From NCBI GenBank assembly GCA_035709445.1, contig DASTET010001092.1, positions 1 to 11,930 of the forward strand: a stretch of 11,930 nucleotides of DNA, in the 5' to 3' direction. Source of the stretch: Blastocatellia bacterium. GTDB lineage: Bacteria > Acidobacteriota > Blastocatellia > UBA7656. Shown piece by piece: positions 1-11,930 of the stretch (the stretch's first letter is position 1; the number at the start of each line of letters is the position of its first letter). The translations under genes were made by a program, and so were the position numbers. The notes under the pieces are model-generated. The model had not been told where the DNA came from. It did not search any database and was given only the letters and a program-made list of their open reading frames with translations.

Positions 1-80
1 TAAAGACGATATCAGATGCGGCGGCCCTGTGCTGCTGCCGTGTCTGTGTGCGCTGACTTAAGAGAGCACTGGAGGAGAAA

Positions 81-2921
81 ATGAGACCCAGATCTTTGCA
101 GGGCCGGACGCGAACGGCTCGCGCGCTTATGCTGTGCTGTACGCTCATTGCTATTGCCTGTACGCCCGCTCAGGCTTTAGCTCAACAGACAGTAACTTCG
201 GCCACGCTGAGCGGGCGGATCGAGGATGCGACCGGGGCAGGTATCGGCGGCGTCCTGGTCACGGCGAAGAGCGTCGATAAGAACTTCATATGGAAGACGA
301 CCAGCGACGAGGATGGGCGCTATCGCTTCTCGTACCTGCCCGCAGGCGATTATCAAATTCAAGCCGAGCATCAGGGGTTTACAGCCGCGAAAAGAGAGCT
401 GGCCCTGCTGCTCGGCCAGACTGTAAACCTCTCGATAAAGCTTTCGGTGGCCGCTATCGCCGAGCAGATTGACGTGGCTGCCGAGGCTCCGGTAATCGAG
501 GCCGCGCGCACCCAGGTCTCCGAAGCGGTCACCCCGAAAGAGATCGATGCGCTCCCGTTAAACGGGCGCAACTATCTGGACCTTGCGCTGCTCATTCCTG
601 CAGTCTCGCGGACGAATACGGGCAGCAACCAGCGTTTCGCGGAGACTTCAGCCGTGCCCGGCACGGGCATCTCAATCGCCGGCCAACGAAATCTGAACAA
701 CAGCTTTATCATTGACGGGCTTTCGGCCAGCGATGACGCGGCGGGGCTTTCGGGATCATTCTATAGCCAGGAGGTCATACGCGAGTTTCAGGTGGTGACC
801 TCCGGCGGCATAGCCGAGTTCGGTCGCACTTCAGCCGGCGTGGTGAACATAATCACCCGGTCGGGCACAAACCTCTGGCGAGGCCGGGCGTATGGCTATA
901 TGCGCAATCAGCGGCTCGATGCGAGAAACCCGCTCGCGCGCACAAAAGACCCTCTCACGCAGGCGCAGTACGGGGCGAGCCTGGGCGGCCCGCTGGCCAG
1001 AGACCGCGCCTTCCTGTTCTCGAACTTCGAACAGACCCGGCAGAACCGCGCGGGCTTTATCACCATCTCGCCAGCAAACGTGGCCTCGATCAACAGCGCG
1101 CTTGACGATATAGGCTACCGAGGGCCGCGCATAGAGACGGGCGAGTTCGCTACGGGGCTTGATTCGACGAATCTCTTTACGAGGCTCGATTACAGGATAA
1201 ACGACCGGAACATGCTTTCGGCCCGCTACAACCTCTATGACATCTCAAGCGAGAACGCTCGAACAGTCGGCGGTCTGAACTCGCTCAGCCGGGGCAGCAG
1301 TCTCGAAAACCGCGACCAGACATTCGCCCTCGACAACGTGACGACCCTCTCTCAAAAGACCGTAAACGAGGCGCGCATCCAGTTCACGCGCAGCCGGTTG
1401 AGCGCGCCCGTCAATGACGAGTTCGGGCCTGCGATCAATATCTCAGGCGTGGCGAGTTTCGGCACGGCAACCTTCTCTCCGACCGCGCGAAACATCGATC
1501 TTTATGAAGCCGTCGATAACATCTCGACCCTGAGGGGGGCGCATTCGGTCAAGGCGGGCATCGGCTTTCTTTATAACCGCGTCGATATCACCTTCCCCGG
1601 CCCGTTGCAGGGCGTCTATACCTTCGCCAATCTTGAAAGCTTTCTTTCAGGGCGGTACATAAACTTTCAGCAGGCGTTCGGCGAAGCGAGCCAGTTTCAA
1701 TCCAACCCTAACCTCGGCCTGTTTCTGCAAGACGAGTGGCGACCGCACGCGGACCTGACGATAAACGCCGGGCTTCGATATGACGCGCAGTGGCTGCCCG
1801 GCCCGATAGAGACCGATGCGAACAACTTCGCGCCACGGCTCGGCATAGCCTATGCCCCCGGAAACCACAGGACGGTCATCCGGGCGAGCGCGGGCCTGTA
1901 TTACGACCGCATACCTCTTCGCGCTACATCGAACGCGCTACAGCGGGACGGGGTAAAATTCAAGACCGCCATCCTGTCGTTCGGCCAGATGGGCGCGCCC
2001 GTCTTCCCCGGCGTGCTCGCGTCGTTCCCGCAGGGGCTTCTCACGAGCATCACCACGATAGACCCGAAGATAGAGAACGGCCACAGCCAGCAGGCCAGCC
2101 TTCAGATCGAGCGGGAGATTGGCACTCGCTCCAACCTGTCGATAGGCTATATTCACCTGCGAGGCTTGCACCTGATCATGTCTCGCAACGTTAATGTGCC
2201 TACGCTCTCGGCAGCCGATGCTGCGAGGCTCGGCGTGCCCAATCTCGGCAGGCCCGATCCGCGATTTGCAAACGTCGGCAGGTTTGAGAGCGCGGGCGAC
2301 TCTTACTACAACGCGATGACTCTCTCTTTCGATAATCGCCCGGCGCAATGGGCAGCCCTAAGGGTCTCTTACACACTCTCGAAGGCGATAGACACGGCGG
2401 GCAATTTCTTCTTCAGCTCGCCGCAGAACAATTTAGATATACGCGACGACCGGGGGCCATCGGATAACGATCAGCGTCACCGTCTCGCGCTCAGCGGGTG
2501 GTTTGAAACGCCGTCTTCGCAAAAAGGCTCGGCGCTCAGGCGAATAACCGGAGGATGGCAGTTGAGCTACATCTACACCTACGAGTCTGCGCTGCCGTTC
2601 AACATACAGACAGGCACAGACCGGAACTTCGACACCAACGTGAATGATCGACCGGCCGGGGTCGGTCGAAACACGGGCCGAGGGTTCGATTTCGCTTCGC
2701 TCGATCTGAGGCTGAGCAGGAGGTTCAGCTTCGACGAGCGCATCAGGCTCGAAGCGATCATCGAGAGCTTCAACACGCTCAACCGGACCAACTTTCAACT
2801 ACCGAACCGGGTAACAGGCACAGGCACAGCGCCTCTGTCGAGCTTTGGGCAGCCGACCGCCGCTGCCGACCCGAGACAGGTGCAGATCGGGCTGCGCCTC
2901 TCTTTCCAGGATCGATTTTAA
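81..2921 (+). CDS. TonB-dependent receptor-like outer-membrane beta-barrel protein with an N-terminal carboxypeptidase-regulatory-like (CarboxypepD_reg) domain
   Basis: 946-aa ORF. GGAGG lies 8 nt upstream of ATG 81. Signal peptide (...IACTPAQALA-QQ). Transthyretin/CarboxypepD_reg-like signature (GRIEDATGAGIGGVLVT...TSDEDGRYRF...LPAGDYQI). A plug-like segment (EIDALPLNGRNYLDLALLIPAV) is followed by a long Gly/Asn/Tyr-rich beta-barrel region. C-terminal ...SFQDRF (terminal aromatic residue typical of OM barrels). High GC3. Confidence 0.85.
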   Translation: MRPRSLQGRTRTARALMLCCTLIAIACTPAQALAQQTVTSATLSGRIEDATGAGIGGVLVTAKSVDKNFIWKTTSDEDGRYRFSYLPAGDYQIQAEHQGFTAAKRELALLLGQTVNLSIKLSVAAIAEQIDVAAEAPVIEAARTQVSEAVTPKEIDALPLNGRNYLDLALLIPAVSRTNTGSNQRFAETSAVPGTGISIAGQRNLNNSFIIDGLSASDDAAGLSGSFYSQEVIREFQVVTSGGIAEFGRTSAGVVNIITRSGTNLWRGRAYGYMRNQRLDARNPLARTKDPLTQAQYGASLGGPLARDRAFLFSNFEQTRQNRAGFITISPANVASINSALDDIGYRGPRIETGEFATGLDSTNLFTRLDYRINDRNMLSARYNLYDISSENARTVGGLNSLSRGSSLENRDQTFALDNVTTLSQKTVNEARIQFTRSRLSAPVNDEFGPAINISGVASFGTATFSPTARNIDLYEAVDNISTLRGAHSVKAGIGFLYNRVDITFPGPLQGVYTFANLESFLSGRYINFQQAFGEASQFQSNPNLGLFLQDEWRPHADLTINAGLRYDAQWLPGPIETDANNFAPRLGIAYAPGNHRTVIRASAGLYYDRIPLRATSNALQRDGVKFKTAILSFGQMGAPVFPGVLASFPQGLLTSITTIDPKIENGHSQQASLQIEREIGTRSNLSIGYIHLRGLHLIMSRNVNVPTLSAADAARLGVPNLGRPDPRFANVGRFESAGDSYYNAMTLSFDNRPAQWAALRVSYTLSKAIDTAGNFFFSSPQNNLDIRDDRGPSDNDQRHRLALSGWFETPSSQKGSALRRITGGWQLSYIYTYESALPFNIQTGTDRNFDTNVNDRPAGVGRNTGRGFDFASLDLRLSRRFSFDERIRLEAIIESFNTLNRTNFQLPNRVTGTGTAPLSSFGQPTAAADPRQVQIGLRLSFQDRF

Positions 2922-2936
2922 GCCCCGATTCACGCC

Positions 2937-2980
2937 GACGGGCGCGGATTTCAGTTTCGCGTCCGTCCGCTTTATAATGT
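2937..2980 (+). terminator. Candidate intrinsic terminator downstream of the TonB-dependent receptor gene
   Basis: 10-bp GC-rich stem gacgggcgcg (2937-2946) / cgcgtccgtc (2958-2967) with one G.U; 11-nt loop; followed by T-rich cgcTTTaTaaTgTTT. Confidence 0.4.
2950..2978 (+). promoter_or_regulatory. Candidate sigma70-type promoter for the SCO1/CusF gene (perfect -10 TATAAT at 2973-2978; weak -35 ttcagt at 2950-2955; 17-nt spacer)
   Basis: Perfect TATAAT hexamer 30 nt upstream of the start codon. GGGAGG RBS at 2991-2996. Overlaps the T-tract of the upstream terminator. Confidence 0.25.
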
Positions 2981-3007
2981 TTCGGCGAAAGGGAGGCATA
3001 ATCGATC

Positions 3008-4132
3008 TTGCGTTTTTATATCGAAAGGTCTGCGGCGACGGTTCTGCTGGTAGCGGTCTGCGCCCTTGCTGTCGGGTGCGATCGGGGAGAAGAGAAGCGG
3101 TATGACTTGAAGGGCAAAGTGGTCAGCGTCGATAAGAGAGGCTCGACCGTGACCATCGCTCACGAAGAGATACCGGGCTACATGGAAGCGATGACCATGC
3201 CGTTCAGGCTGAAGGATGAATGGGCGTTCGACAAGCTGGCTCCAGGCGATCAGGTGACGGCGACGCTCGTAGTCCGAGGCGACCGCTCGTGGATCGAGGG
3301 CATCGTCTTCAGCCGACAAGAGCCGATTCCGGAAGGCGAAGCATCACCGGCAGCTTTGAATGAACCCGCGCCGGGCAGTGAAGTGCCCGGATTTTCGCTT
3401 ACGAATCAGGACGGCAAGCGCATAGACTTCGAGAAGTATAAAGGGCGGCCCCTGGTCGTAACATTCATCTATACGAGGTGCCCGGTCCCGGATTACTGCC
3501 CGTTGATGAGCGAGCGATTCGCAGAGATCGATAAGGCCATCAAGAAAGAGCCTCAGCTTTACGGTCAGGCGCGACTCCTGAGCGTCACCGTCGACCCGGA
3601 GTTCGATACGCCGGATGTGCTCAAGGCTTATGGGTCGGCCTTCACCGATCCCGCATTTCAGCACTGGGAGTTCGCCACCGGCACGCGCGACGAGATCAAG
3701 AAAGTGGCGGGCTATTTCGGCATGCAGTACTGGCCTGAAAAGGGCGAGATAATACACTCGCTTCGGACTGCGCTGGTCACGCCGGAAGGAAGACTCTTCA
3801 AGCTGTACCGTGGCAACGAGTGGAAGTCGGCGGAAATCCTCGCCGACCTCGAAGCCATGCGAGGCCAGGCGACGGCCGATCAACCGCAGCCCGGTAAGAG
3901 CGCCGTAAAGTCCTACAGCGGTGTAGGGGTGGTCGAGGAGATCGACAGGCAGATGGCGACCGTGCAGATCAATCACGAGGACATAAAAGATTTCATGCCT
4001 GCAATGAGCATGCCTTTTGCAGTGCGCGACAAAAGGCTGCTCGACGCGGCGCGGCCCGGCGACCGAGTGGAGTTCTCGGTCCACGCCGATGCTTCGGGCA
4101 TGGTGCTGGTTGCGTTAAAGAAGAGGGAATAA
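3008..4132 (+). CDS. Lipoprotein copper chaperone: SCO1/SenC thioredoxin-fold domain flanked by N- and C-terminal CusF-like Cu(I)-binding domains
   Basis: TTG start preceded by GGGAGG. Lipobox LAVGC. Two CusF-like H...M-x-M-P-F motifs (TIAHEEIPGYMEAMTMPF and INHEDIKDFMPAMSMPF; compare E. coli CusF ITIHHDPI...WPEMTMRF). Central SCO1 C-x3-C (CPVPDYCP) with the downstream conserved His (IIHSLRTALVTPEGRLF). Confidence 0.85.
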   Translation: MRFYIERSAATVLLVAVCALAVGCDRGEEKRYDLKGKVVSVDKRGSTVTIAHEEIPGYMEAMTMPFRLKDEWAFDKLAPGDQVTATLVVRGDRSWIEGIVFSRQEPIPEGEASPAALNEPAPGSEVPGFSLTNQDGKRIDFEKYKGRPLVVTFIYTRCPVPDYCPLMSERFAEIDKAIKKEPQLYGQARLLSVTVDPEFDTPDVLKAYGSAFTDPAFQHWEFATGTRDEIKKVAGYFGMQYWPEKGEIIHSLRTALVTPEGRLFKLYRGNEWKSAEILADLEAMRGQATADQPQPGKSAVKSYSGVGVVEEIDRQMATVQINHEDIKDFMPAMSMPFAVRDKRLLDAARPGDRVEFSVHADASGMVLVALKKRE

Positions 4133-4137
4133 AAACA

Positions 4138-4254
4138 GGAAGCCAGAAGTCAGAAGCCAGAAGTCCGTCGTTAAAGATTCTGATTTCATTCACCCCGCAG
4201 CAATCGAGAGACTGCGCGAGAGATTCCGGCTTCTGACTTCTGGCTTCTGGCTTC
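4138..4254. repeat. 117-nt inverted repeat. Arms of 27 nt are built from tandem heptamers GAAGCCA/GAAGTCA; the loop is 62 nt; A5 and T5 runs flank it. Probable bidirectional intrinsic terminator after the SCO1/CusF gene.
   Basis: Left arm 4139-4165 (gaagccagaagtcagaagccagaagtc). Right arm 4228-4254 (ggcttctgacttctggcttctggcttc). In full register the arms pair with two G.U and one C.A mismatch; a 7-nt register shift gives 20 perfect bp. Upstream aaaaa (4131-4135) and downstream ttttt (4255-4259). Confidence 0.6.
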
Positions 4255-4400
4255 TTTTTACAATACTTTACTTCTGGTCCCGGGAGGGGCGTGATAATCT
4301 TGATCGGCCAGGCTCCACGCGGCGGGCGGAACTTCAGCCTTTTTGCCGCGTGAGAGCCCTTTAAGGCGCGAGGAAATCAGACAATTACGGGAGAGACAGG

Positions 4401-5642
4401 ATGAAGTTGAGATATCTGTTTTCCATTTTGCTCTCGCTTGCGCTCGTGCAGGTATCTGCGGGTCGGTCGGCCCGCGATTACGACTGGCCGCAGTGGAGAG
4501 GCGCGGACCGAACGGGTCTATCGAGAGATACCGGGCTGCTGAAATCGTGGCCCGCCGAAGGCCCGTCTGTCGTCTGGACGATCTCGAATCTTGGCGAAGG
4601 CTACGGCTCAGTCGCAATCCAGGGCAATTATATATTCGTACAGGGGGCGAAGGGGAGCGAGAGCGTCGTATTCTGCCTGAACCGCGCCGACGGCAAGACC
4701 ATCTGGACGCAGGCGCTCGGCCCCCGTCTCGACCAGGACCGTGGAGGCGGCCCGCGCGGCACGCCCACCGTTGACGGCGATAGGGTCTATGTGCTCACGG
4801 AAAACGGCGACCTGGCCTGTCTTAAAGCCAGGGACGGGGCGGTCGTCTGGCGTAAGAACATCATGAAAGATTTCGGTGGCCGCAACATCACCTGGCTCAT
4901 AAGCGAGTCGCCGCTAATCGATGGGAACAACCTGATAGTCACTCCCGGCGGAGAAGGAGCGGCGATAGTCGCGCTCGACAAGATGAGCGGAAAGACCGTC
5001 TGGACGAGCAAAGAGCTGAGCGACCCTGCCGGGTATTCATCATGCCTGGTCGCCGATGTGGGCGGGGTGCGCACGATAATGGGATTTACGGCGAGGGCCG
5101 CCGTCGGTCTTCGCGCCACGGACGGAAAGCTTATGTGGCGTTATGAGCCCGTATCCAACCGCACGGCCAATTGCACGACCCCCGTCTATCATGACAACAA
5201 GGTCTTCTACACATCGGCCTACGGGACGGGCTGCGCCCTGCTCGGTCTCAAACCGGAAGGCGGAGAGGTCCGCGCCCAGGAGGTCTATTTCAGCAAAGAC
5301 ATGATGAACCATCACGGCGGCGTGGTGCTGATCAACGGATACCTCTACGGCTTCTCAAACGCGATACTCACCTGCATAGAGTTCAACACGGGCAAAGTCA
5401 TGTGGAAAGACCGCAGCGTGGGGAAGGGCTCGCTCACCTATGCCGACGGCCACCTTTACCTGCTCGGCGAGAACAACACGGTCGGGCTGGCCGAAGCCAC
5501 GCCCGAAGGCTACAGGGAGAAGGGCAGGTTTAAGATCGCCGACCAGGGCTGGCCAAGCTGGGCGCACCCGGTCGTCGCAGGCGGAAGGTTCTATATACGG
5601 AACCAGGGCATGCTCACCTGCTACAACGTGAAAGCGAAATGA
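4401..5642 (+). CDS. Secreted PQQ-like beta-propeller repeat protein (BamB/PQQ-enzyme-repeat family)
   Basis: 413 aa. Signal peptide MKLRYLFSILLSLALVQVSA. DWPQWRGADRTG motif typical of PQQ-repeat propellers. Recurring (V/I)Y-x-x-(D/N)G...L-x-A-x-D-x-x-x-G-x-x-x-W blades. Confidence 0.85.
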   Translation: MKLRYLFSILLSLALVQVSAGRSARDYDWPQWRGADRTGLSRDTGLLKSWPAEGPSVVWTISNLGEGYGSVAIQGNYIFVQGAKGSESVVFCLNRADGKTIWTQALGPRLDQDRGGGPRGTPTVDGDRVYVLTENGDLACLKARDGAVVWRKNIMKDFGGRNITWLISESPLIDGNNLIVTPGGEGAAIVALDKMSGKTVWTSKELSDPAGYSSCLVADVGGVRTIMGFTARAAVGLRATDGKLMWRYEPVSNRTANCTTPVYHDNKVFYTSAYGTGCALLGLKPEGGEVRAQEVYFSKDMMNHHGGVVLINGYLYGFSNAILTCIEFNTGKVMWKDRSVGKGSLTYADGHLYLLGENNTVGLAEATPEGYREKGRFKIADQGWPSWAHPVVAGGRFYIRNQGMLTCYNVKAK

Positions 5643-5649
5643 GATCTGA

Positions 5650-5692
5650 GACAGGATTAACAGGTCTTTTTGTACGACCTGTTAATCCTGTC
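5650..5692. terminator. Perfect 17-bp palindrome (GACAGGATTAACAGGTC, 9-nt loop tttttgtac) at the junction of convergent genes. Candidate bidirectional terminator or protein-binding palindrome.
   Basis: Left arm 5650-5666; right arm 5676-5692, an exact reverse complement. The right arm contains the last three codons and the TAA stop (5682-5684) of the minus-strand 157-aa gene. No clean U-tract follows on either strand. Confidence 0.5.
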
Positions 5693-6155
5693 CGATGACG
5701 CTGTACTCGACCGACCCGTCCTTCAGCGAATCCGCAAAGTACAATTCGACGCGCCTGCCTGAGAAGCGCTCCAGGAGCGCCTTTCGCGCCCTCTTCAGGT
5801 TCGCGATCTGCTTCTGATTGAACTCCGGCTCGGTGAAAAAGTACTGCACACTCTCTTTGAAGAAGAGACAGTCGTCGTGCCCTACGAGCACGATCTCGGG
5901 CGACCGGGTGCGCTTGAGAAGAAAAGAGAGCGATTGCAGGTTGACCTTGAAGAACTTGGGCATCAAGTGCTCGAGCGTGACGAAGTGGCCGCCGCCCGGC
6001 ACGGCTTGCAGCGCGTAAGACGACAGGCGCAGCCCTTCGGTCAGGAACTCGTGAAACCCGGCCTGAAACCGGTGATCGCTGCAATGGATGACCACCGCCT
6101 CCGAGGTCGCGTCTTCCAGTCTGGCCTTTGATATGTAGATGGTCGGGGCTTTCAT
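5682..6155 (-). CDS. Small soluble hypothetical protein with a beta-carbonic-anhydrase-like metal-ligand pattern (C25-x-D27-x-R29 ... H93-x-x-C96); last gene of the NfeD-flotillin operon
   Basis: 157 aa, high GC3, no TM segment. VVIHCSDHRF resembles the beta-CA motif (...CSDSRV) and IVLVGHDDCLFF resembles the beta-CA motif (...VxGHxxCG), with 68-residue spacing (beta-CA about 56). An overlapping alternative-frame ORF (5614-6198) is Arg-rich and was rejected. Confidence 0.7.
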   Translation of the reverse strand: MKAPTIYISKARLEDATSEAVVIHCSDHRFQAGFHEFLTEGLRLSSYALQAVPGGGHFVTLEHLMPKFFKVNLQSLSFLLKRTRSPEIVLVGHDDCLFFKESVQYFFTEPEFNQKQIANLKRARKALLERFSGRRVELYFADSLKDGSVEYSVIGQD

Positions 6156-6174
6156 CGTCTCTAAAAATATTCAA

Positions 6175-6233
6175 CCGCAGAGGAGCGCAGAGGATCAATA
6201 ATGATCAAAATAACCTCTGCGCCCTCTGCGCCC
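6175..6233. repeat. Intra-operon inverted repeat between the flotillin gene and the small downstream gene. Arms are built from GCAGAGG units; the loop is 20 nt and AT-rich.
   Basis: Left arm ccgcagagg-a-gcgcagagg (6175-6193) pairs with cctctgcgccctctgcgg... (6214-6231), giving 17 bp with one bulged A. Loop atcaataatgatcaaaataa. On the minus-strand transcript the stem is followed by uugaauauuuuua and then the start codon of the 157-aa gene. Confidence 0.5.
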
Positions 6234-6261
6234 TTTGCGGTGATTAACTCCGACTCTTACA

Positions 6262-7860
6262 CTAATCCAACCGCTCAATCGATTCGGAGGAGACCTTCGT
6301 GGCGCGCTCAGCCGGGATCGCCGTGGCTGCGTCCGCGCCGGTCTTGATGCCGAGCTGCTGCATCATGGTCGGGATATCGAGGCCGAGCGCCTCAAGCTGC
6401 TGTAGCAGCCCGAAGATGACGGACGGGGCGGTTGAGGCGAAGCGACCGACTCCGCTCTGTCCGTGGCCGTTGCCGTTTCCCTGCTCGATGACTACTACCT
6501 TGTCGATGTTGCCGAGCGGGGCAGCGACCGCGCCGAAGACGGGGGCGGAAGCCTGAAGGATCGACGGCAGCTTCTCGAGTATAGTCTGGAGCCGCGCCGC
6601 CTCATTGAACTCTTTCCACGCATCGGCCTTCTTCAAGATGGCGTTCGCTTCGGCAAGCCCCTGCGCTTCTATCGCCTTCGCCTGCGCAAGCCCCATAGCT
6701 TCGATCTTTGCGGCTTCGGCCCGGCCTTCGGCCTCTATAGCTGCGGCGCGACCTGCGCCCTCTTTCTTGAGCCGCTCCTGCTCGGCCTCGGCTATAGCGA
6801 TGAGCGAAGCCTTCTTGCCTTCGGCTTCGAGTATGGCGGCCTGCTTGGCGGCCTCGGCTTTCAAGACGGCTGCCGTTCGCGCGGCATCGGCGGGCTTGAC
6901 GACGGTTGCTTCAAGCTCTTTTTCGCGCCGGAGAATCTCCTGTTCTTGAACGGCGATCTGCTCCTGGGTGCGAATCCTTTCGATGCGGACCTCTTCGGCC
7001 ACGACCGACTGGCGGGCTTTGGCCGACGAGAGCGGGCCGGACTGGTCCGCCGTCGCGCGCTCTTTTTCTACTTCTGCCTGATACTGGGCCTTTTTGACTT
7101 CGAGGTCGCGGTGCGCGAGCGAGATATTGGCCTCGGTGTCGAGCTTGACCTTTTCGCCCTCCTGCATGGCGAGGCTCGACTGAATCTTCGAGTCGCGCAG
7201 GGCTTCGGCCTCGCCGATCTGCGCATCGCGTTTGACTTCGGCGGTCCTGCTTTTTCCGAGCGCGTCGAGATAGCCCTCCTCGTCGCTTATCTCCTGGATC
7301 GTGAGCACGTCGACGCCTATGCCCATACGCTCGAGGTCGGTTGTGGCCTCGCTCGTCAGCTTCTGGGCGAAGCTCTGGCGGTCATTGTTTATCTCTTCGA
7401 CCGTCAGCGTGCCGAGTATCGCGCGGAGGTGGCCTTCGAGGGTCTGAAAGATGACGCGCTGCACCTCCTGAAGCGACATGCCGAGAAAGCGTTCGGCAGC
7501 CGCCTGTAGCGAGATGTCATCGCTTTTGATCTTGACGTTGGCGACGGCCTTGACCGAGACCGGCACGCCTTTGAGCGTGTAGGCGCGGCGTATCTCAAGC
7601 GGTATGGTCACGACGTTGAGCGCGAGGTAGTCGACCTTTTCAAGTAGCGGTATTCGAAGGGCCGCGCCTCCCTTGATTATGCGGTAGCCGACCACGCGCC
7701 CGTCCGGGAGCTTGCGCTTGCGGCCCGAAAAGACCGCCGCAGCGTTGGGCGGCACCTTTATGTAGTTGCGCGAGATCACTGACATACCGATAAAGAATGT
7801 GATGACGATGACCGCCACAATCAGAATTATCAATGGCCATTGATTTCCTAGAATATCCAT
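6262..7860 (-). CDS. Flotillin-like SPFH/band-7 protein (FloT/YuaG type)
   Basis: 532 aa. N-terminal membrane anchor (WPLIILIVAVIVITFFIGMSVI). SPFH domain, then a long coiled-coil with Glu/Ala-rich flotillin repeats (AEAEQERLKKE...AIEAEGRAEAAKIEA...). C-terminal tail. Confidence 0.9.
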   Translation of the reverse strand: MDILGNQWPLIILIVAVIVITFFIGMSVISRNYIKVPPNAAAVFSGRKRKLPDGRVVGYRIIKGGAALRIPLLEKVDYLALNVVTIPLEIRRAYTLKGVPVSVKAVANVKIKSDDISLQAAAERFLGMSLQEVQRVIFQTLEGHLRAILGTLTVEEINNDRQSFAQKLTSEATTDLERMGIGVDVLTIQEISDEEGYLDALGKSRTAEVKRDAQIGEAEALRDSKIQSSLAMQEGEKVKLDTEANISLAHRDLEVKKAQYQAEVEKERATADQSGPLSSAKARQSVVAEEVRIERIRTQEQIAVQEQEILRREKELEATVVKPADAARTAAVLKAEAAKQAAILEAEGKKASLIAIAEAEQERLKKEGAGRAAAIEAEGRAEAAKIEAMGLAQAKAIEAQGLAEANAILKKADAWKEFNEAARLQTILEKLPSILQASAPVFGAVAAPLGNIDKVVVIEQGNGNGHGQSGVGRFASTAPSVIFGLLQQLEALGLDIPTMMQQLGIKTGADAATAIPAERATKVSSESIERLD

Positions 7861-7869
7861 CGTACCCTC

Positions 7870-8469
7870 CTATGCCGGGTTATTCGGCTTGAACAAATAG
7901 ACGCCGTCGGCCTTATCTGTTTGAAAGAGGCTGACGATCACGCCATCGCCTGTGATCTCTTCGATCCTCACCAGCGAGTTATAGGGGATCTCGAAGCCTT
8001 CGCGCGAGCGGGCTATCTTTTCAACCATGCTCTCGCCCACCAGACAGCGAACCTGCCCAAAGCCGTTATTCGGGATCGCAACGGTCACCTGCGCGGTCAG
8101 CCCTACGAGGTCCGAAGAGGTGATAACGCTCGTCGCCTGCTGCGAGTAGAGCAGGCGGGCGAAGAAATAGACCGCCGCGCCGAGCGTCACGCCGCCCGCA
8201 AGCCCCAGAGCGGTGCTTGCGAAGACGCCCAGGCCCTGATAAATCCCGATGGCGCCGAACCCGCCAAAAGCGGTGATGAACACGCTGATGACCTTCGTGT
8301 TGAAAAAGCTCGGCCCGTCGTGGCCTATATCGTGGTCTATGTCATGATCGAACTCGAAATGCTCGAATATCTCGCCGAAGACAAGCGTCACGAGCAGGAA
8401 CAGGAACCCTATTGCCCCTATGGCAAGAAAGACCGAAGAGGCGCTGATCTGAGAAAGCCATTCCAACAT
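7870..8469 (-). CDS. Short NfeD-like membrane protein (YuaF type), with a His/Asp-rich insert
   Basis: 199 aa. GGAG RBS 10 nt upstream. Hydrophobic N-terminal half with 3-4 predicted TM segments. C-terminal OB-fold-like beta domain (GQVRCLVGESMVEKI...RIEEITGDGVIVSL). Lies 9 nt upstream of the flotillin gene, the classic NfeD-SPFH pairing. Insert EHFEFDHDIDHDIGHDG lies between TM1 and TM2. Confidence 0.8.
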   Translation of the reverse strand: MLEWLSQISASSVFLAIGAIGFLFLLVTLVFGEIFEHFEFDHDIDHDIGHDGPSFFNTKVISVFITAFGGFGAIGIYQGLGVFASTALGLAGGVTLGAAVYFFARLLYSQQATSVITSSDLVGLTAQVTVAIPNNGFGQVRCLVGESMVEKIARSREGFEIPYNSLVRIEEITGDGVIVSLFQTDKADGVYLFKPNNPA

Positions 8470-8591
8470 CTCATCCGCTCCTATCAGATGGTGCTATGGA
8501 TGCGGCCAGCAGACGATGGCGATGTTTGATCGTCCGCCGCTCGCCACGACGTTGCTCAGTGATAAGACCTGACCTGTAAAGAGGCGGCCAG

Positions 8592-8620
8592 ATTCTATCA
8601 CCGCCATCAACCGGAGAGAA
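8592..8620 (-). promoter_or_regulatory. Candidate sigma70 extended -10 promoter (minus strand TGaTAGAAT; weak -35 TTCTCT) for the NfeD-flotillin operon
   Basis: Minus-strand reading: ...ttctct-N17-tagaat, with TG two nt upstream of the -10. Lies immediately downstream of the anti-sigma stop and about 120 nt upstream of the NfeD start. Confidence 0.2.
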
Positions 8621-8622
8621 GG

Positions 8623-9540
8623 CTATTTCGAGGGGTCGGGCCGGGGTTTGAGGCTTTCGATGAAGTCGCGGTCTTTCGTCCCGGCGTGGCAGACTATGCA
8701 GGACTGCTGGCCGCGCTCTTCGAGGTCCGACACGAGCCCATAGGTCAGGCCGCGATCCGACCAGGTGATGACCTTTAGCCCCTCGATGGTTTCGTAATGA
8801 AAGGTGAGTCCCTTCGAGGCGATCTCTTCTCCGCCGCGCGGCGTGGCCACCCGGTCCGAGGTGACTACGAGCGTGATCGGACGGCCCTGCATCTGATAGG
8901 CGATATAAGCCGCATAATCATTCTTGAATCCGACCAGCCGCGCGCCTTCGATCTCGTAGAGCTTCTCCTGCCCGGATGTCTTCTGGTAATCCGGCAGCAC
9001 TAAACTGAACGAGACCTTTCCCGCAAACCAGCGCGACACCTCGTCGGGCGACCCGGAAGTGATCTCGAACGGGAGCTGGCCGCGCAGGTGGCGGAGGTGA
9101 GTATCGACGGCCATTATCGCAAACTCTGAGGTAAGCGAGGGCGGCGCGAGCGCAGGACGCCGCGCCGCGTACCAGAGCGCCGCTGCGATGATGAAGACGG
9201 CAACGGTGGCGAGCGCGAAGACCCGTCGGCCTTTCAGACTGAAGGGGGCGGCGGTCTTCCATAAAGACTTCTGCACGCGAGTCCGCAATTCGGGCGGAGC
9301 GGCATACACGGGCGGCGCATCGCTCAGCACACGCTCGGACTTCGCGCGAAGCTCGGGAGGCGCGGTATAAATCGGACGGGCCCGGCGTATGCTCTCGATG
9401 AACTGCCGCTCATCAGATACCATCTGCTCGCACGAACGGCATTCGGCCAGGTGCGCTTCGAATCGGGCGAGGTCCGAGCCGCTCAACTCGTCGTCGAGAT
9501 AGAAGGCTATCCGAGAGCGTATGTCGTCACAATAATTCAT
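8623..9540 (-). CDS. Transmembrane ZAS-type (zinc-finger HC2) anti-sigma factor with a periplasmic C-terminal domain ending in a CxxCH haem-c binding motif
   Basis: Start chosen at ATG 9540 (MNYCDD...). It forms an ATGA overlap with the stop codon of the upstream ECF sigma gene. ZAS signature C...H-x3-C-x2-C (FEAHLAECRSCEQ). Single TM helix (VFALATVAVFIIAAALWYAA). About 165-aa periplasmic domain. CIVCH is encoded at 8686-8700. The six-frame ORF extends to 9654, but the upstream extension is Arg/Gly-rich and lacks an RBS. Confidence 0.8.
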   Translation of the reverse strand: MNYCDDIRSRIAFYLDDELSGSDLARFEAHLAECRSCEQMVSDERQFIESIRRARPIYTAPPELRAKSERVLSDAPPVYAAPPELRTRVQKSLWKTAAPFSLKGRRVFALATVAVFIIAAALWYAARRPALAPPSLTSEFAIMAVDTHLRHLRGQLPFEITSGSPDEVSRWFAGKVSFSLVLPDYQKTSGQEKLYEIEGARLVGFKNDYAAYIAYQMQGRPITLVVTSDRVATPRGGEEIASKGLTFHYETIEGLKVITWSDRGLTYGLVSDLEERGQQSCIVCHAGTKDRDFIESLKPRPDPSK

Positions 9541-10109
9541 GCTTCTTTGGCCCGCATCGGTTTTCCCGCCGCTTCGGCCTGCCACTGACTGAGCAGCGAT
9601 CTCAGTTTTTCTCGCGCCCGTCCGAGCCGCGACATGACGGTCCCGGCGGGGCATCCCAGGATTCCGGAAATCTGCTGATAGCTGAAGCCTTCAAGGTCCC
9701 TGAGCACGATCACTTCGCGGTACAGCCGGGGAAGGCTTTCAATGGCGGCCCTTACCTCTTCGCGCTCTATCTTTCTAACAAAGACCGTATAAGGGTTGCT
9801 TGCAAGGCTGTCGAGCCATTCAGCGCGGCCCTCTTCTTCCTCATCCAGCTCGACAAATCGCGGGCCGCTACGCGCGTGGCGGAGCTGGTTGAGCCAGATA
9901 TTTCGGCAGATGGCAAACAGCCAGCCTTTCAGATTGCTGTCAGGCATGAGCTGACCGAAGGCCCTCACGGCCCGCAGATAGGTCTCCTGCACAAGGTCTT
10001 GAGCTTCGGCCTCATTGCGCGCAAGCGCCATGGCGTATCCGTACAGCGCATCGATATGCTCGATTGCCGCCTGGCGAAAGTCCACGCTGTCGCCTTTATT
10101 CTCGCTCAT
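9537..10109 (-). CDS. ECF (group IV) RNA polymerase sigma-70 factor
   Basis: Region 2 (DLVQETYLRAVRAF...WLFAICRNIWLNQLRH) and region 4 (REVIVLRDLEGFSYQQISGILGCPAGTVMSRLGRAR) are present. Start chosen at ATG 10109 (MSENKGD...), giving 190 aa, typical for ECF factors. The longer ORF to 10214 adds a hydrophobic non-homologous extension. The stop overlaps the anti-sigma start (ATGA). Confidence 0.85.
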   Translation of the reverse strand: MSENKGDSVDFRQAAIEHIDALYGYAMALARNEAEAQDLVQETYLRAVRAFGQLMPDSNLKGWLFAICRNIWLNQLRHARSGPRFVELDEEEEGRAEWLDSLASNPYTVFVRKIEREEVRAAIESLPRLYREVIVLRDLEGFSYQQISGILGCPAGTVMSRLGRAREKLRSLLSQWQAEAAGKPMRAKEA

Positions 10110-10206
10110 GATGAGCCCTGCGCCGTTGTAAAGGGCGCATAATAATAACACATGACCTCTTAAATTATTCCCTCCGCGCCCGAATAAATTCACCGGCGTG
10201 AGTGCC

Positions 10207-10233
10207 GTCACCATTCGAGGTGACTCGTGTCAC
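10207..10233. promoter_or_regulatory. Overlapping palindromes GTCACC-N6-GGTGAC and GTGAC-N4-GTCAC in the divergent sigma/CCP intergenic region. Candidate operator.
   Basis: gtcaccattcgaggtgactcgtgtcac read directly from the sequence. About 100 nt upstream of the ECF sigma start and about 145 nt upstream of the CCP start. Confidence 0.3.
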
Positions 10234-10263
10234 AGTCGCCGCGGACAAACCCGATTACAATGT

Positions 10264-10291
10264 TTGTCTGCGCCACCTGTATTTCTATGAC
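10264..10291 (+). promoter_or_regulatory. Weak candidate sigma70 promoter for the cytochrome c peroxidase gene (TTGTCT-N16-TATGAC)
   Basis: Hexamer matches 4/6 and 4/6 to consensus, 85 nt upstream of ATG 10376. Low information content; listed only as a candidate. Confidence 0.15.
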
Positions 10292-10375
10292 TTTTTCGGG
10301 CTGGTGATGGAATAAAAAAGCGATTCGCGTGTTATTACCTGGGAAGTCGAAGGTGGCCAACAGGGATCAATCATC

Positions 10376-11533
10376 ATGAAAAACAGACTACGCAATATAA
10401 AGCTGCTGCTGATTGCTGCGGCGACTGTTTTTGTCGTCATAAATCTTCTTCCCGTCACGGGGGTCGCCCAGAAAGAGAAATACAAGCCGGACCTGCCCCC
10501 GGCAATCCCGGCTGATCTATGGGAGATGCTCATCCCCGAAGACAATCCCATGACCGAAGCCAAGATCGCTTTAGGACGCGACCTCTATTTCGACAAGCGT
10601 CTTTCAGTAGATAACACCGTGAGCTGCGCGACCTGCCACGATCCGAAGACCGCTTTCGCAGAATCGAAGATCGTCGCCGAAGGGATAGGCGGCAAGAAGG
10701 GCGCGCGCAACTCTCCCACGGTCCTCAATGCGATGTTCAACGTCGAGCAGTTCTGGGATGGCCGCGCAAAAACGCTCGAAGAACAGGCCAAGGGGCCGCT
10801 CACGAACCCCTTAGAGATGGGCATGCCCTCGCACGACGCGGTCGTCGATCGGGTAAAACAGGCGCCCGACTATGTGAAGCGGTTCCAGGAGGTGTTCGGC
10901 GGCCCGGTCACCATCGACAACATTGCCAAGGCTATAGCCTCTTTCGAGCGCACGCAGCTTTCCGGCGATTCTCCGTTCGACCGTTTCAACGCTGGCGATA
11001 AGTCCGCCATAAGCGCCGAAGCCCAGCGCGGGTTCGAGATATTCAAGGGCAAGGGCCGCTGTATAACCTGTCACGAGTTCAACGCCTCTTCGCCTTTCTT
11101 CACTGACTTCAAGTACCACAATGTCGGCGTCGGAATGAAAGCGACGAAGAACTTCGAATCGCTCGCCCGGCAGGTCCAGCAGATGGCTCAGCAGCAGCAG
11201 CTCACCGCCGAATCTTTGGACCAGCTTTCGCTCAGCGAAGGGTTCTCCGAGCTTGGCAGGTTCCTCGTCACGCGCGAGCCGAAAGACGTAGGAGCATTCA
11301 AGACGCCTCCGCTACGCGACATAGAGCTGACCGCTCCTTATATGCACGACGGCAGCCAGAAGACGCTGCGCGAGGTCATAGACTTTTACAACAAAGGGGG
11401 CGAGCCGAACCCCAATCTCGACGGCGGGATTCGCAAGCTCGATCTCACAGACCAGGAGATAAGCGACCTGGAAGCGTTCCTGAAATCATTGACCAGTGAT
11501 CGCGTTCGCAAACTAGTGTCTGGCGAGTCGTAA
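10376..11533 (+). CDS. ccp: Di-haem cytochrome c peroxidase (CCP/MauG family), secreted
   Basis: Signal peptide MKNRLRNIKLLLIAAATVFVVINLL. Two CxxCH motifs (CATCHDP, CITCHEF). Family signature TAPYMHDGS. Conserved FWDGRA and PLTNPLEMG segments. A Gln-rich insert (QVQQMAQQQQLTAESLDQLS) lies between the haem domains. Confidence 0.9.
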   Translation: MKNRLRNIKLLLIAAATVFVVINLLPVTGVAQKEKYKPDLPPAIPADLWEMLIPEDNPMTEAKIALGRDLYFDKRLSVDNTVSCATCHDPKTAFAESKIVAEGIGGKKGARNSPTVLNAMFNVEQFWDGRAKTLEEQAKGPLTNPLEMGMPSHDAVVDRVKQAPDYVKRFQEVFGGPVTIDNIAKAIASFERTQLSGDSPFDRFNAGDKSAISAEAQRGFEIFKGKGRCITCHEFNASSPFFTDFKYHNVGVGMKATKNFESLARQVQQMAQQQQLTAESLDQLSLSEGFSELGRFLVTREPKDVGAFKTPPLRDIELTAPYMHDGSQKTLREVIDFYNKGGEPNPNLDGGIRKLDLTDQEISDLEAFLKSLTSDRVRKLVSGES

Positions 11534-11542
11534 ACAGTCCAG

Positions 11543-11666
11543 CGAGTCTGGCGAGTCGCGAGTCTGGCGAGTCGCTTTCGAGACAGACACCGCTTTAAAC
11601 AGGTGTTGCAAAGTAATCAGCGCCGCGAGGAGCGGGACTCGCTAGACTCGCGACTCGCCAGACTCG
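11543..11666. repeat. 124-nt inverted repeat with 31-nt arms built from tandem GCGAGTC(TG) units and a 62-nt loop. The unit series begins inside the 3' end of the CCP gene.
   Basis: Left arm 11543-11573 (cgagtctggcgagtcgcgagtctggcgagtc). Right arm 11636-11666 (gactcgctagactcgcgactcgccagactcg). This gives 31 bp with a single G.U. An additional copy of tctggcgagtcg at 11519-11530 encodes the CCP C-terminus ...SGES immediately before the TAA stop. No flanking T-tracts. Confidence 0.6.
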
Positions 11667-11691
11667 TTAGACTCATTATGGAGATGAACTT

Positions 11692-11930
11692 ATGTGGCCA
11701 TTAAAATGGAAAAAAAGAGAACAGCAGTATCAGGCCGAACGAGCCGAGTTCTTCGATGCGGTCAAACGGCTTGATAGGCGGTCGTTTCTGAAGGTGGCGG
11801 GCATGTCAGCGGCCGTGGCCGCTGCGCACACGACGTTTCCACCTCACTCGTTTCAGCTCGTAGATGTCGTTTCGGCCCAGACTATGGAGAAGCCGCACTT
11901 CAGGTTCGCCTATATCTCGGACTCGCACCT
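11692..11930 (+). CDS. Tat-secreted metallophosphoesterase (calcineurin-like), 5' partial (runs off the window end)
   Basis: GGAG lies 9 nt upstream of ATG 11692. Twin-arginine motif LDRRSFLKVAG with an Ala-rich h-region. The first metallophosphoesterase motif (FAYISDSHL, a D-x-H type) lies right at the window end. Confidence 0.6.
   Translation, partial: MWPLKWKKREQQYQAERAEFFDAVKRLDRRSFLKVAGMSAAVAAAHTTFPPHSFQLVDVVSAQTMEKPHFRFAYISDSH

Follow-up and report, generated by a model that had tools for sequence, protein, structure and literature searches.

Contig DASTET010001092.1 of the Blastocatellia bacterium assembly GCA_035709445.1 (Acidobacteriota; positions 1 to 11,930, forward strand) carries a gene for a lipoprotein in which a SCO1/SenC (Sco) domain stands between two CusF-type domains, and this gene was analysed together with the whole stretch of 11,930 nucleotides (nt) around it, hereafter the window, and with its relatives in other genomes. 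With a probability of about 55%, the protein is a lipid-anchored periplasmic copper chaperone relay in which CusF takes the role of PCuAC, coupled here to a copper-responsive module for import over the outer membrane. The gene looks like the last member of a three-gene unit consisting of a leader open reading frame (ORF), a gene for a TonB-dependent-receptor-like protein and the CusF-SCO-CusF gene itself (Table 1). Three aspects go beyond current descriptions, namely the fusion of CusF and Sco domains, a family-wide C-x5-C motif in the Sco domain, and the link of the family in Acidobacteriota to CruR/CutF-like leaders and TonB-type receptors.

The domain content was established by Pfam searches, in which the whole protein matched CusF_Ec over two stretches (3.3e-36) as well as SCO1-SenC (6.1e-24). 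When the three segments were scanned separately, each scored above its Pfam cut-off (27 bits for CusF_Ec and 22.8 bits for SCO1-SenC), with 1.2e-24 and 87.2 bits for the Sco segment (residues 112–292), and the tri-domain CusF-SCO1-CusF assignment made in the first-pass annotation of this DNA is thereby borne out. The NCBIfam model PRK09838 (CusF) reached 55.9 bits, where 143 are required, and the protein is therefore not an equivalog of that entry. A sequence search of the PDB matched the Sco domain to Bacillus subtilis Sco (1xzo, 1.7e-18), and the top Foldseek matches of the middle domain, which include 4hde, 1xzo, 1wp0 and 6n5u, had target-normalised TM-scores of 0.78–0.86 with E-values of about 1e-12 to 1e-13. 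In an AlphaFold2 model based on 32 homologues, with a mean predicted local distance difference test (pLDDT) score of 81 and a predicted template modelling (pTM) score of 0.51, folded domains are seen at about residues 30–102, 123–290 and 302–370, the N-terminal CusF domain being rich in strands at a pLDDT of around 90, and both linkers fall below 50. The second linker is extended in homologues by up to about 35 additional low-complexity residues. Confident domains joined by such linkers at a low pTM indicate that the domains would be tethered and mobile rather than arranged as a rigid relay, any packing between them in the model being unreliable at this pTM, and an intramolecular hand-off of Cu(I) between them is accordingly treated here as a putative step.

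The N-terminus is that of a lipoprotein. The signal peptide is kept only when the TTG at 3008 is used as start codon, and any start further 5′ is ruled out because of an in-frame TAA just upstream. The lipobox LAVGC named in the first-pass annotation withstood inspection, as L-A-V-G-C24, with R2, R7 and an uncharged stretch ahead of it, agrees with the PROSITE rule PS51257 in a rule-based reading by eye, and C24 is invariant in the homologue alignment described below. An identical 374-amino acid (aa) protein is annotated on 4 public contigs.

All of the predicted metal ligands are invariant in an alignment of 32 homologues with 51–77% identity to the query, as H52/M59/M62/M64 in the N-terminal CusF domain, C158/C164/H250 in the Sco domain and H323/M330/M333/M335 in the C-terminal CusF domain. 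The two CusF sites (HEEIPGYMEAMTM and HEDIKDFMPAMSM) have the spacing H-x6-M-x2-M-x-M, which replaces the H-x7-M-x2-M-x-M originally read for both. The CusF-type set of a His and a Met-x-Met pair (H52/M62/M64 and H323/M333/M335) is thus complete in each domain. The capping Trp at H+8 is not found; in both domains, the position of W44 of E. coli CusF is filled by a Met (M59, M330), which stands at H+7. In the Sco domain, HMMER alignment to B. subtilis Sco places a two-residue insertion in the C158–C164 motif relative to CETIC, and the site first described as CxxxC is consequently a C-x5-C (CPVPDYC), in which C158, P159, P161, Y163 and C164 are all invariant along with the following P165. The IIHSL sequence had been rightly picked out as a Sco feature, since its invariant H250 aligns with the His of ‘VIHQS’ in B. 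subtilis Sco, which is the copper ligand H135. Each of these sites is predicted to bind copper.

The architecture is widespread within one phylum. PF11604 and PF02630 were both present in all 120 of the closest homologues drawn from a collection of 5.8 billion proteins, most of them from Blastocatellia or other Acidobacteriota and labelled in their source merely as ‘copper-binding protein’ or ‘protein SCO1/2’; two CusF motifs occur in 118 of these sequences and C-x5-C in 119. Relatives were found in at least 587 GTDB species genomes (one genome per species), nearly all from Acidobacteriota, and an artefactual gene fusion is excluded because hundreds of genomes have kept the architecture. Among the best 80 GTDB loci, which have C-x5-C without exception, 6 encode the tri-domain form and 74 encode CusF-SCO lipoproteins of ∼290–310 aa that have no C-terminal domain. 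Similarly, when the Sco domain by itself was searched exhaustively (E ≤ 1e-30), 231 clusters at 50% identity resulted, and the best 150 representatives comprise 104 CusF-SCO proteins, 2 CusF-SCO-CusF proteins and 41 that are Sco-only by motif, fragments among them, with C-x5-C in all 147 representatives in which the motif could be located. From these counts and the uniform C-x5-C across the subfamily it follows that the pairing of CusF and Sco is ancient and under selection. The two-domain CusF-SCO protein is the ancestral and commonest form, and the tri-domain form is a Blastocatellia elaboration of this large, old CusF-Sco(C-x5-C) family that probably arose via an old internal duplication; the C-terminal CusF domains form a separate clade, with about 56% identity to each other and about 40% to the N-terminal domains. 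A second, unrelated tri-domain protein is the metagenomic sequence P0178 (373 aa), the C-terminal CusF domain of which is 46–50% identical to N-terminal domains, compared with about 40% in the Blastocatellia type, and seems to have been copied recently from an N-terminal domain. This likeness suggests more than one origin of the tri-domain form.

The genomic context was inspected in about 87 loci, among them 80 GTDB loci, over which neighbouring ORFs were clustered, and 6 long contigs carrying tri-domain genes. In none of the about 87 loci does an RND, OEP, HlyD, CopA or multicopper-oxidase gene adjoin the CusF-SCO gene, and CusCBA, CopA, PCuAC and cox genes were not consistently linked to it in the 80 GTDB loci and the 6 long contigs. 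The absence of linked RND, OEP, HlyD and CopA genes rules out a Cus efflux context and implies that the CusF domains do not act with CusCBA, so that the picture of CusF as a stand-alone partner of that system, from which the first-pass annotation set out, does not apply to this CusF, which is a domain of a lipoprotein.

The recurrent neighbours are genes for receptors of two types. The receptor of the window (type A) matched CarboxypepD_reg, OMP_b-brl_4 (9.8e-121) and, weakly, TonB_dep_Rec_b-barrel (3.5e-7) in Pfam, with no match to Plug; an N-terminal CarboxypepD_reg domain of this kind is typical of Acidobacteriota receptors. Its gene is separated from that of the lipoprotein by 86 nt in which no terminator was predicted. 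Type A orthologues with 64–72% identity lie near CusF-SCO genes in six other loci (L055, L089, L010, L063, L003, and L087), which together with the window makes 7 loci with differing gene orders. Type B receptors (∼740–780 aa; Plug 9.8e-11) have a mutual identity of 44–82% and ∼22% identity to type A, and the units to which they belong stop after the CusF-SCO gene, with housekeeping genes next. All receptor-like ORFs found within ±10 kb of the 80 loci (13/13) share the strand of the CusF-SCO gene.

Two further observations concern the receptor genes. In the plug region of type B receptors there is an invariant His cluster (consensus HDMLHMRGGHQ; H170, H174, and H179 in the L029 protein, L029:7559-9847) in a comparison of L029 with its orthologues in L041, L042, L047, L054, and L005, and this cluster could be a metal site. 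In addition, the type A receptor gene is followed in three loci by a gene for a BNR_2 (sialidase-like) propeller lipoprotein of ∼400–434 aa (L010:14562-15866, L063:14579-15874, and L087:13898-15097), the three proteins being 34–52% identical to each other, and in these lineages the module may include the propeller as an additional part.

A small leader ORF precedes the receptor gene in all 7 type A loci. Type A leaders consist, in order, of a hydrophobic N-terminus, CxMxCC..G.CCC, CPxxC, 49–53 residues, R(A/P)PP and 4–8 residues to the stop, and the spacing from CPxxC to R(A/P)PP is 49 residues in five of the seven, 51 in one and 53 in another. The leader of the window, which lies just beyond its first nucleotide, reads CCIEDGYCCC, CPSGC, 49 aa, RPPP, SSSF, and stop. 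The leader of type B receptors is another one, rich in Cys and His and likewise hydrophobic at its N-terminus, in which the last Cys is followed by 52–53 residues, QPPR and a final 3 residues. Of the type A leaders, six are full-length, and four of these have 140–146 aa, that of L063 has 186 aa and that of L010 about 227 aa; type B leaders have 119–123 aa, and the gap from leader to receptor gene is 67–222 nt. For the leader of the window, base pairing is predicted between the RPPP codons (CCUCCUCC) and the Shine-Dalgarno (SD) sequence GGAGGAG of the receptor gene (71–77), across the hairpin at 13–46 (z = -2.2 in a fold of L081:270-410).

Rules have been published for CutF-like and CruR upstream ORFs that head copper operons, including those with TonB-dependent transporter genes (PMC9426467; PMC8456105; 10.1101/2022.11.11.516240). 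According to Ozturk et al., such ORFs have <150–170 aa, an N-terminal export signal, a Cys motif, a PP motif in the last 15 residues and a same-strand gene within 1 kb. The acidobacterial leaders agree with this rule set, with export signals judged by eye and with two leaders (L063 and L010) longer than 170 aa. CruR of Bordetella pertussis has an export signal, CXXC, 45 residues and RAPP three residues from its end, and heads the operon cruR-bfrG-bp2921, in which bfrG encodes a TonB-dependent transporter and which copper shuts off by relieving the arrest of ribosomes (PMC9426467). Downstream of CutF-like genes one often finds genes of TonB-type, PCuAC and CusF proteins, and SenC occurs in their neighbourhoods (PMC8456105; 10.1101/2022.11.11.516240); the surveys of them mostly cover Pseudomonadota and Bacteroidota (10.1101/2022.11.11.516240). 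By analogy, the acidobacterial leader would control the receptor gene by copper-dependent ribosome arrest.

In the proposed mechanism, the two CusF-type β-barrels, each with a His and three Met residues suited to Cu(I), would capture periplasmic Cu(I), which could then be exchanged by ligand swap between the CusF sites and the Cys2His site of Sco, a client protein, or both. The Sco domain would metallate, and possibly reduce, Cys-containing sites of cuproenzymes, for example the CuA site of haem-copper oxidases, and the CusF-Sco fusion would amount to a covalent version of the two-protein relay of Sco and PCuAC. The leader would make expression copper-responsive, by analogy with CruR-BfrG and CutF-CutO, and the module as a whole would join copper entry over the outer membrane to chaperone-mediated distribution, up to cuproenzyme assembly. 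The direction of transfer, the client enzymes, the substrate of the receptor and the sign of regulation are all putative. A bolder proposal is that leader, receptor and CusF-SCO(-CusF) form a self-contained and previously unrecognised copper supply line, with a new branch of CruR/CutF leaders, invisible to Pfam, that controls an outer-membrane importer, transfer of copper from the importer to the tethered multi-site chaperone, CusF domains as a replacement for PCuAC, a new C-x5-C class of Sco that has a coordination or redox chemistry of its own and, in the tri-domain form, a second port of entry or exit; this is tentative, and possible rather than probable.

The proposed system may be compared with its closest known relatives and analogues. 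The Sco/SenC/PrrC family (PF02630; B. subtilis Sco/YpmQ, human SCO1, and B. diazoefficiens ScoI) shares the thioredoxin-like fold and the Pfam match, two Cys and a distal His at equivalent positions, a DPE.DTP motif and, in B. subtilis Sco, the lipoprotein anchor, whereas the proteins described here have C-P-x-P-x-x-C (C-x5-C) instead of CxxxC, are fused to one or two CusF domains and have cox genes linked to them in none of the loci examined. With CusF/SilF (PF11604) they share the small β-barrel, here above threshold twice, and His and Met-x-Met ligands in the same order; they differ in being a domain of a lipoprotein rather than a free protein, in the missing CusCBA genes, in a His-to-first-ligand spacing that is shorter by one residue and in the Met at the position of W44. 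A putative functional analogue is the PCuAC-Sco (PccA-SenC) relay to CuA/CuB, in which a Cu(I) protein of Met/His type likewise works together with a Cys2His Sco anchored in the membrane and which would act in the same manner; PCuAC is cupredoxin-like, whereas CusF has its own fold, and the partners are here covalently joined in a ratio of 1:1 or 2:1. Cooperation of PCuAC and Sco has been described (PMC9145763; PMC9470648), and unrelated small proteins are able to fill the role of the Sco partner (PMC9145763).

The leaders resemble those of CruR(Bp2923)-BfrG-Bp2921 and of CutF-CutO in Rhodobacter capsulatus, which are also small exported ORFs with a Cys motif and a C-terminal RAPP/PP at fixed spacing, and in the case of CruR-BfrG the leader likewise lies directly upstream of a same-strand gene of TonB-dependent-receptor type. 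The acidobacterial leaders differ in additional Cys clusters (CxMxCC..CCC), in their spacing of 49–53 residues as against 45 and in the lack of a Pfam match, and the third gene of the unit is CusF-SCO(-CusF), whereas that of the CruR operon encodes a PepSY_TM protein. As in the TonB-dependent copper importers OprC and NosA, an outer-membrane TonB-type barrel is genetically tied to copper-handling genes; unlike them, the type A receptors have no site of CxxxM/HxM type and no sequence match to solved transporters.

Several observations count against a relay coupled to copper import. The leader-receptor module adjoins the CusF-SCO gene in only 16 of the ∼87 loci (∼18%), and this share, together with the position of the Pyrinomonadaceae genes within a housekeeping block, implies that coupling to import is facultative. 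No Cys or Met is invariant across the 7 type A orthologues, which implies that they have no OprC-like copper site, and the search for such a site was equally negative in type B, which has no invariant Cys; moreover, PDB sequence searches gave no useful solved relative for either receptor type. Genes for client enzymes linked to the CusF-SCO genes were not found in the loci examined. The C-x5-C motif departs from the CxxxC that defines Sco proteins, and to judge from the motif, Cu binding by the Sco domain is not assured. None of the five leaders scanned had a Pfam match at E ≤ 1, including PF11162 (DUF2946), and 59 leader homologues are all labelled ‘hypothetical’ and carry no Pfam annotation, so that the leaders bear a strong resemblance to CruR/CutF and are putative members of that group. 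The leader of the window itself has RPPP and not RAPP. Finally, pairing between arrest codons and SD was found in three of the seven loci (the window, L089, and L087) but in none of the remaining four, and CCU-CCU complements an SD by its very sequence; masking of the SD was accordingly set aside as a general feature and kept as a lead.

The same CusF and Sco domains might instead serve copper detoxification or buffering, as a Cu(I)/Ag(I) sponge or a chaperone that feeds efflux, with Sco as a third, high-affinity site or as a thiol reductant under copper stress and with a leader that induces at high copper. It is true that CusCFBA efflux is the best-known setting of CusF_Ec domains (PMC9470648), that CutF-like leaders mostly head efflux or detoxification genes and CutF induces on copper (10.1101/2022.11.11.516240), and that three metal sites a chain would give a high buffering capacity. 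This role is nevertheless unlikely, as no efflux-type gene of the kinds listed above adjoins the CusF-SCO genes in the about 87 loci, the recurrent partner is TonB-dependent-receptor-like and belongs to a class known for import, the one characterised operon of leader plus transporter is repressed by copper (PMC9426467), and Sco domains are assembly factors and not storage proteins (PMC9145763). A distinctly improbable alternative is that the C-x5-C domain works mainly as an oxidoreductase of thiols and disulfides, as TlpA, ResA or Thermus Sco1 do, and reduces Cys residues of the client, with CusF feeding the client directly and no transfer from CusF to Sco. Sub- to near-threshold matches of the middle domain to AhpC-TSA and Redoxin, the presence of ResA and peroxiredoxin structures among its Foldseek matches and the changed Cys spacing, which could retune redox instead of metal chemistry, would fit such a role, and a reductant function of Sco is allowed for in the literature (PMC9145763); on the other hand, H250, which a pure oxidoreductase does not need, is invariant together with both Cys, and in both sequence and structure Sco proteins that bind copper match best, better than TlpA, ResA and peroxiredoxins do.

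The linkage of receptor and lipoprotein could also be incidental, given that Acidobacteria have very many receptors of CarboxypepD_reg type, and the lipoprotein would then be a stand-alone housekeeping variant of Sco. The ∼82% of loci that lack the module, the housekeeping block in Pyrinomonadaceae, the varying contexts of tri-domain genes and the absence of a recognisable copper site in the receptors are what such a coincidence would lead one to expect, yet the order of leader, receptor and CusF-SCO recurs with two receptor families that are unrelated and have separate Cys-rich leaders with a PP motif, the type A receptor stays near the gene despite rearrangement (it precedes the gene in the window, L055, and L089 and follows it in L010, L063, L087, and L003), the contigs of leader matches agree in length with contigs on which further tri-domain genes lie, and the flanking receptor-like ORFs are uniformly co-oriented with the gene, so that incidental linkage seems very improbable.

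No paper on CusF-Sco fusions or on extended Sco motifs was found in the accessible literature, and the remark in the first-pass annotation that the arrangement was not known as a characterised one stands, none being described in the searchable literature; of the refuting case that it named, an architecture both common and already characterised, the first half applies, in view of the large Acidobacteriota family, and the second does not. As both building blocks are textbook components, the fusion is common in one phylum and database labels exist, although generic ones, the protein is not categorically new. Acidobacteriota rank with the most abundant bacteria in soil, and their metal economy is almost unstudied. 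The family offers a widely conserved covalent fusion of the Met/His and Cys2His types of periplasmic copper site, in which hand-off can be studied within one polypeptide, and its family-wide C-x5-C challenges the textbook CXXXC definition of Sco. The lack of Cus linkage bears on the role of CusF homologues in organisms without RND systems, a question raised previously (PMC6769254). If the leader link is true, regulation by copper-sensing leader peptides would reach a new phylum and candidate outer-membrane copper importers would be at hand. Current models are thereby extended, and none is overturned.

Table 1. Features of the window and receptor genes near CusF-SCO genes in other loci (positions without a locus name are those of the window).
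Feature	Position or locus	Strand	Remark
Leader ORF of the window	contig L081, nt 2-298		ends ∼11 nt 5′ of window position 1
Intergenic region between leader and receptor gene	1..80	+	13-bp GC hairpin 13-46; SD GGAGGAG 71-77
Type A TonB-dependent-receptor-like outer-membrane barrel, 946 aa	81..2921	+	likely operon partner
SD-like GGGAGG	2991..2996	+	11 nt 5′ of TTG start; read from sequence
In-frame TAA	2999-3001	+	upstream of TTG 3008
Whole gene, CusF-SCO-CusF lipoprotein, 374 aa	3008..4132	+	TTG start, TAA stop
Lipoprotein signal peptide and lipobox (MRFYIERSAATVLLVAVCALAVG-C24)	3008..3079	+	read from sequence
N-terminal CusF_Ec domain, residues 32-98	3101..3301	+	PF11604, 2.4e-17, 63.0 bits alone
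N-terminal Met/His site H52-x6-M59-x2-M62-x-M64	3161..3199	+	four residues invariant, 32 sequences
Linker 1, residues 103-122, predicted flexible	3314..3373	+	pLDDT <50 at 105-116; poorly conserved
SCO1/SenC thioredoxin-fold domain, residues 123-290 (Pfam match 128-262)	3374..3877	+	PF02630
Cys motif C158-P-V-P-D-Y-C164, C-x5-C	3479..3499	+	HMMER alignment to B. subtilis Sco
H250 (IIHSL), counterpart of the Sco copper-ligand His	3755..3757	+	aligned with B. subtilis Sco ‘VIHQS’; invariant
Linker 2, residues 291-301, predicted flexible, length varies	3878..3910	+	pLDDT <50 at 290-299
C-terminal CusF_Ec domain, residues 303-372	3914..4123	+	PF11604, 3.6e-19, 68.8 bits alone
C-terminal Met/His site H323-x6-M330-x2-M333-x-M335	3974..4012	+	four residues invariant, 32 sequences
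Terminator-like element: 28-bp stem, large loop, T-run at 4255-4259	4137..4259	+	begins 5 nt past lipoprotein stop
Type A orthologue directly upstream of CusF-SCO gene	L055, L089
Type A orthologue about 850 nt downstream of CusF-SCO gene	L010, L063
Type A orthologue about 1.7 kb downstream of CusF-SCO gene	L087
Type A orthologue 4.2 kb downstream of CusF-SCO gene	L003
Type B receptor directly upstream of CusF-SCO gene	L029, L041, L042, L047, L054
Type B receptor within 1.3-2.6 kb of CusF-SCO gene	L056, L005

The 3′ end of the unit would be marked by an element that looks like an unusually long intrinsic terminator. A scan of positions 2700–4500 for consensus promoters and terminators gave nothing beyond shuffle expectation; in an RNA fold, the element at 4137–4259 reached -56.5 kcal/mol (z = -6.1), a value equalled by none of 200 shuffles, and its inverted repeats were confirmed and are unique to this site within the window and the fetched loci. 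The 28-bp stem is made of duplicated GAAGCCAGAAGTC units and is followed, after a structured loop, by TTTTT. This terminator-like hairpin argues for an end of the unit at this point and suggests that the next gene on the same strand, which encodes a secreted PQQ_2/BamB-like β-propeller of 413 aa (4401–5642, +), is separate. The PQQ_2 propeller was also considered as a member of the unit and rejected, as the hairpin lies between the two genes, no such gene recurs near homologues and there is no BLAST kinship to the BNR_2 propellers.

The surroundings of the gene in other lineages vary. In Pyrinomonadaceae it lies within a housekeeping block (Slt-like transglycosylase, folD, etfAB, fabF/D/H, plsX, and coaE), and this synteny was discarded as a functional clue, the neighbours being housekeeping genes common through relatedness. 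The six tri-domain genes on long contigs have variable surroundings. The only candidate cuproenzyme neighbours seen are in L090, where a divergent gene with a weak Cu2_monoox_C match (L090:5756-7081, -) lies two genes upstream of the tri-domain gene and a NorB/COX1-type gene (L090:1-277) lies ∼7 kb from it.

The remainder of the window contains a block at 8623–11533 with genes for an extracytoplasmic function (ECF) sigma factor (9537–10214, -), a zf-HC2 anti-sigma factor (8623–9654, -) and a di-haem CCP/MauG peroxidase (10376–11533, +). The sigma and anti-sigma ORFs overlap by 118 nt, and the anti-sigma start is therefore probably further downstream. The same block of sigma, anti-sigma and CCP genes is also found next to the tri-domain gene of L086, and a sigma and anti-sigma pair next to that of L085. 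Other ORFs on the reverse strand encode a Pro_CA_2-like protein of 157 aa (5682–6155) and, within 6262–8469, an SPFH/flotillin protein of 532 aa and, directly before it, a membrane protein of 199 aa that matches nothing in Pfam and occupies the usual place of NfeD-type partners before an SPFH/flotillin gene.

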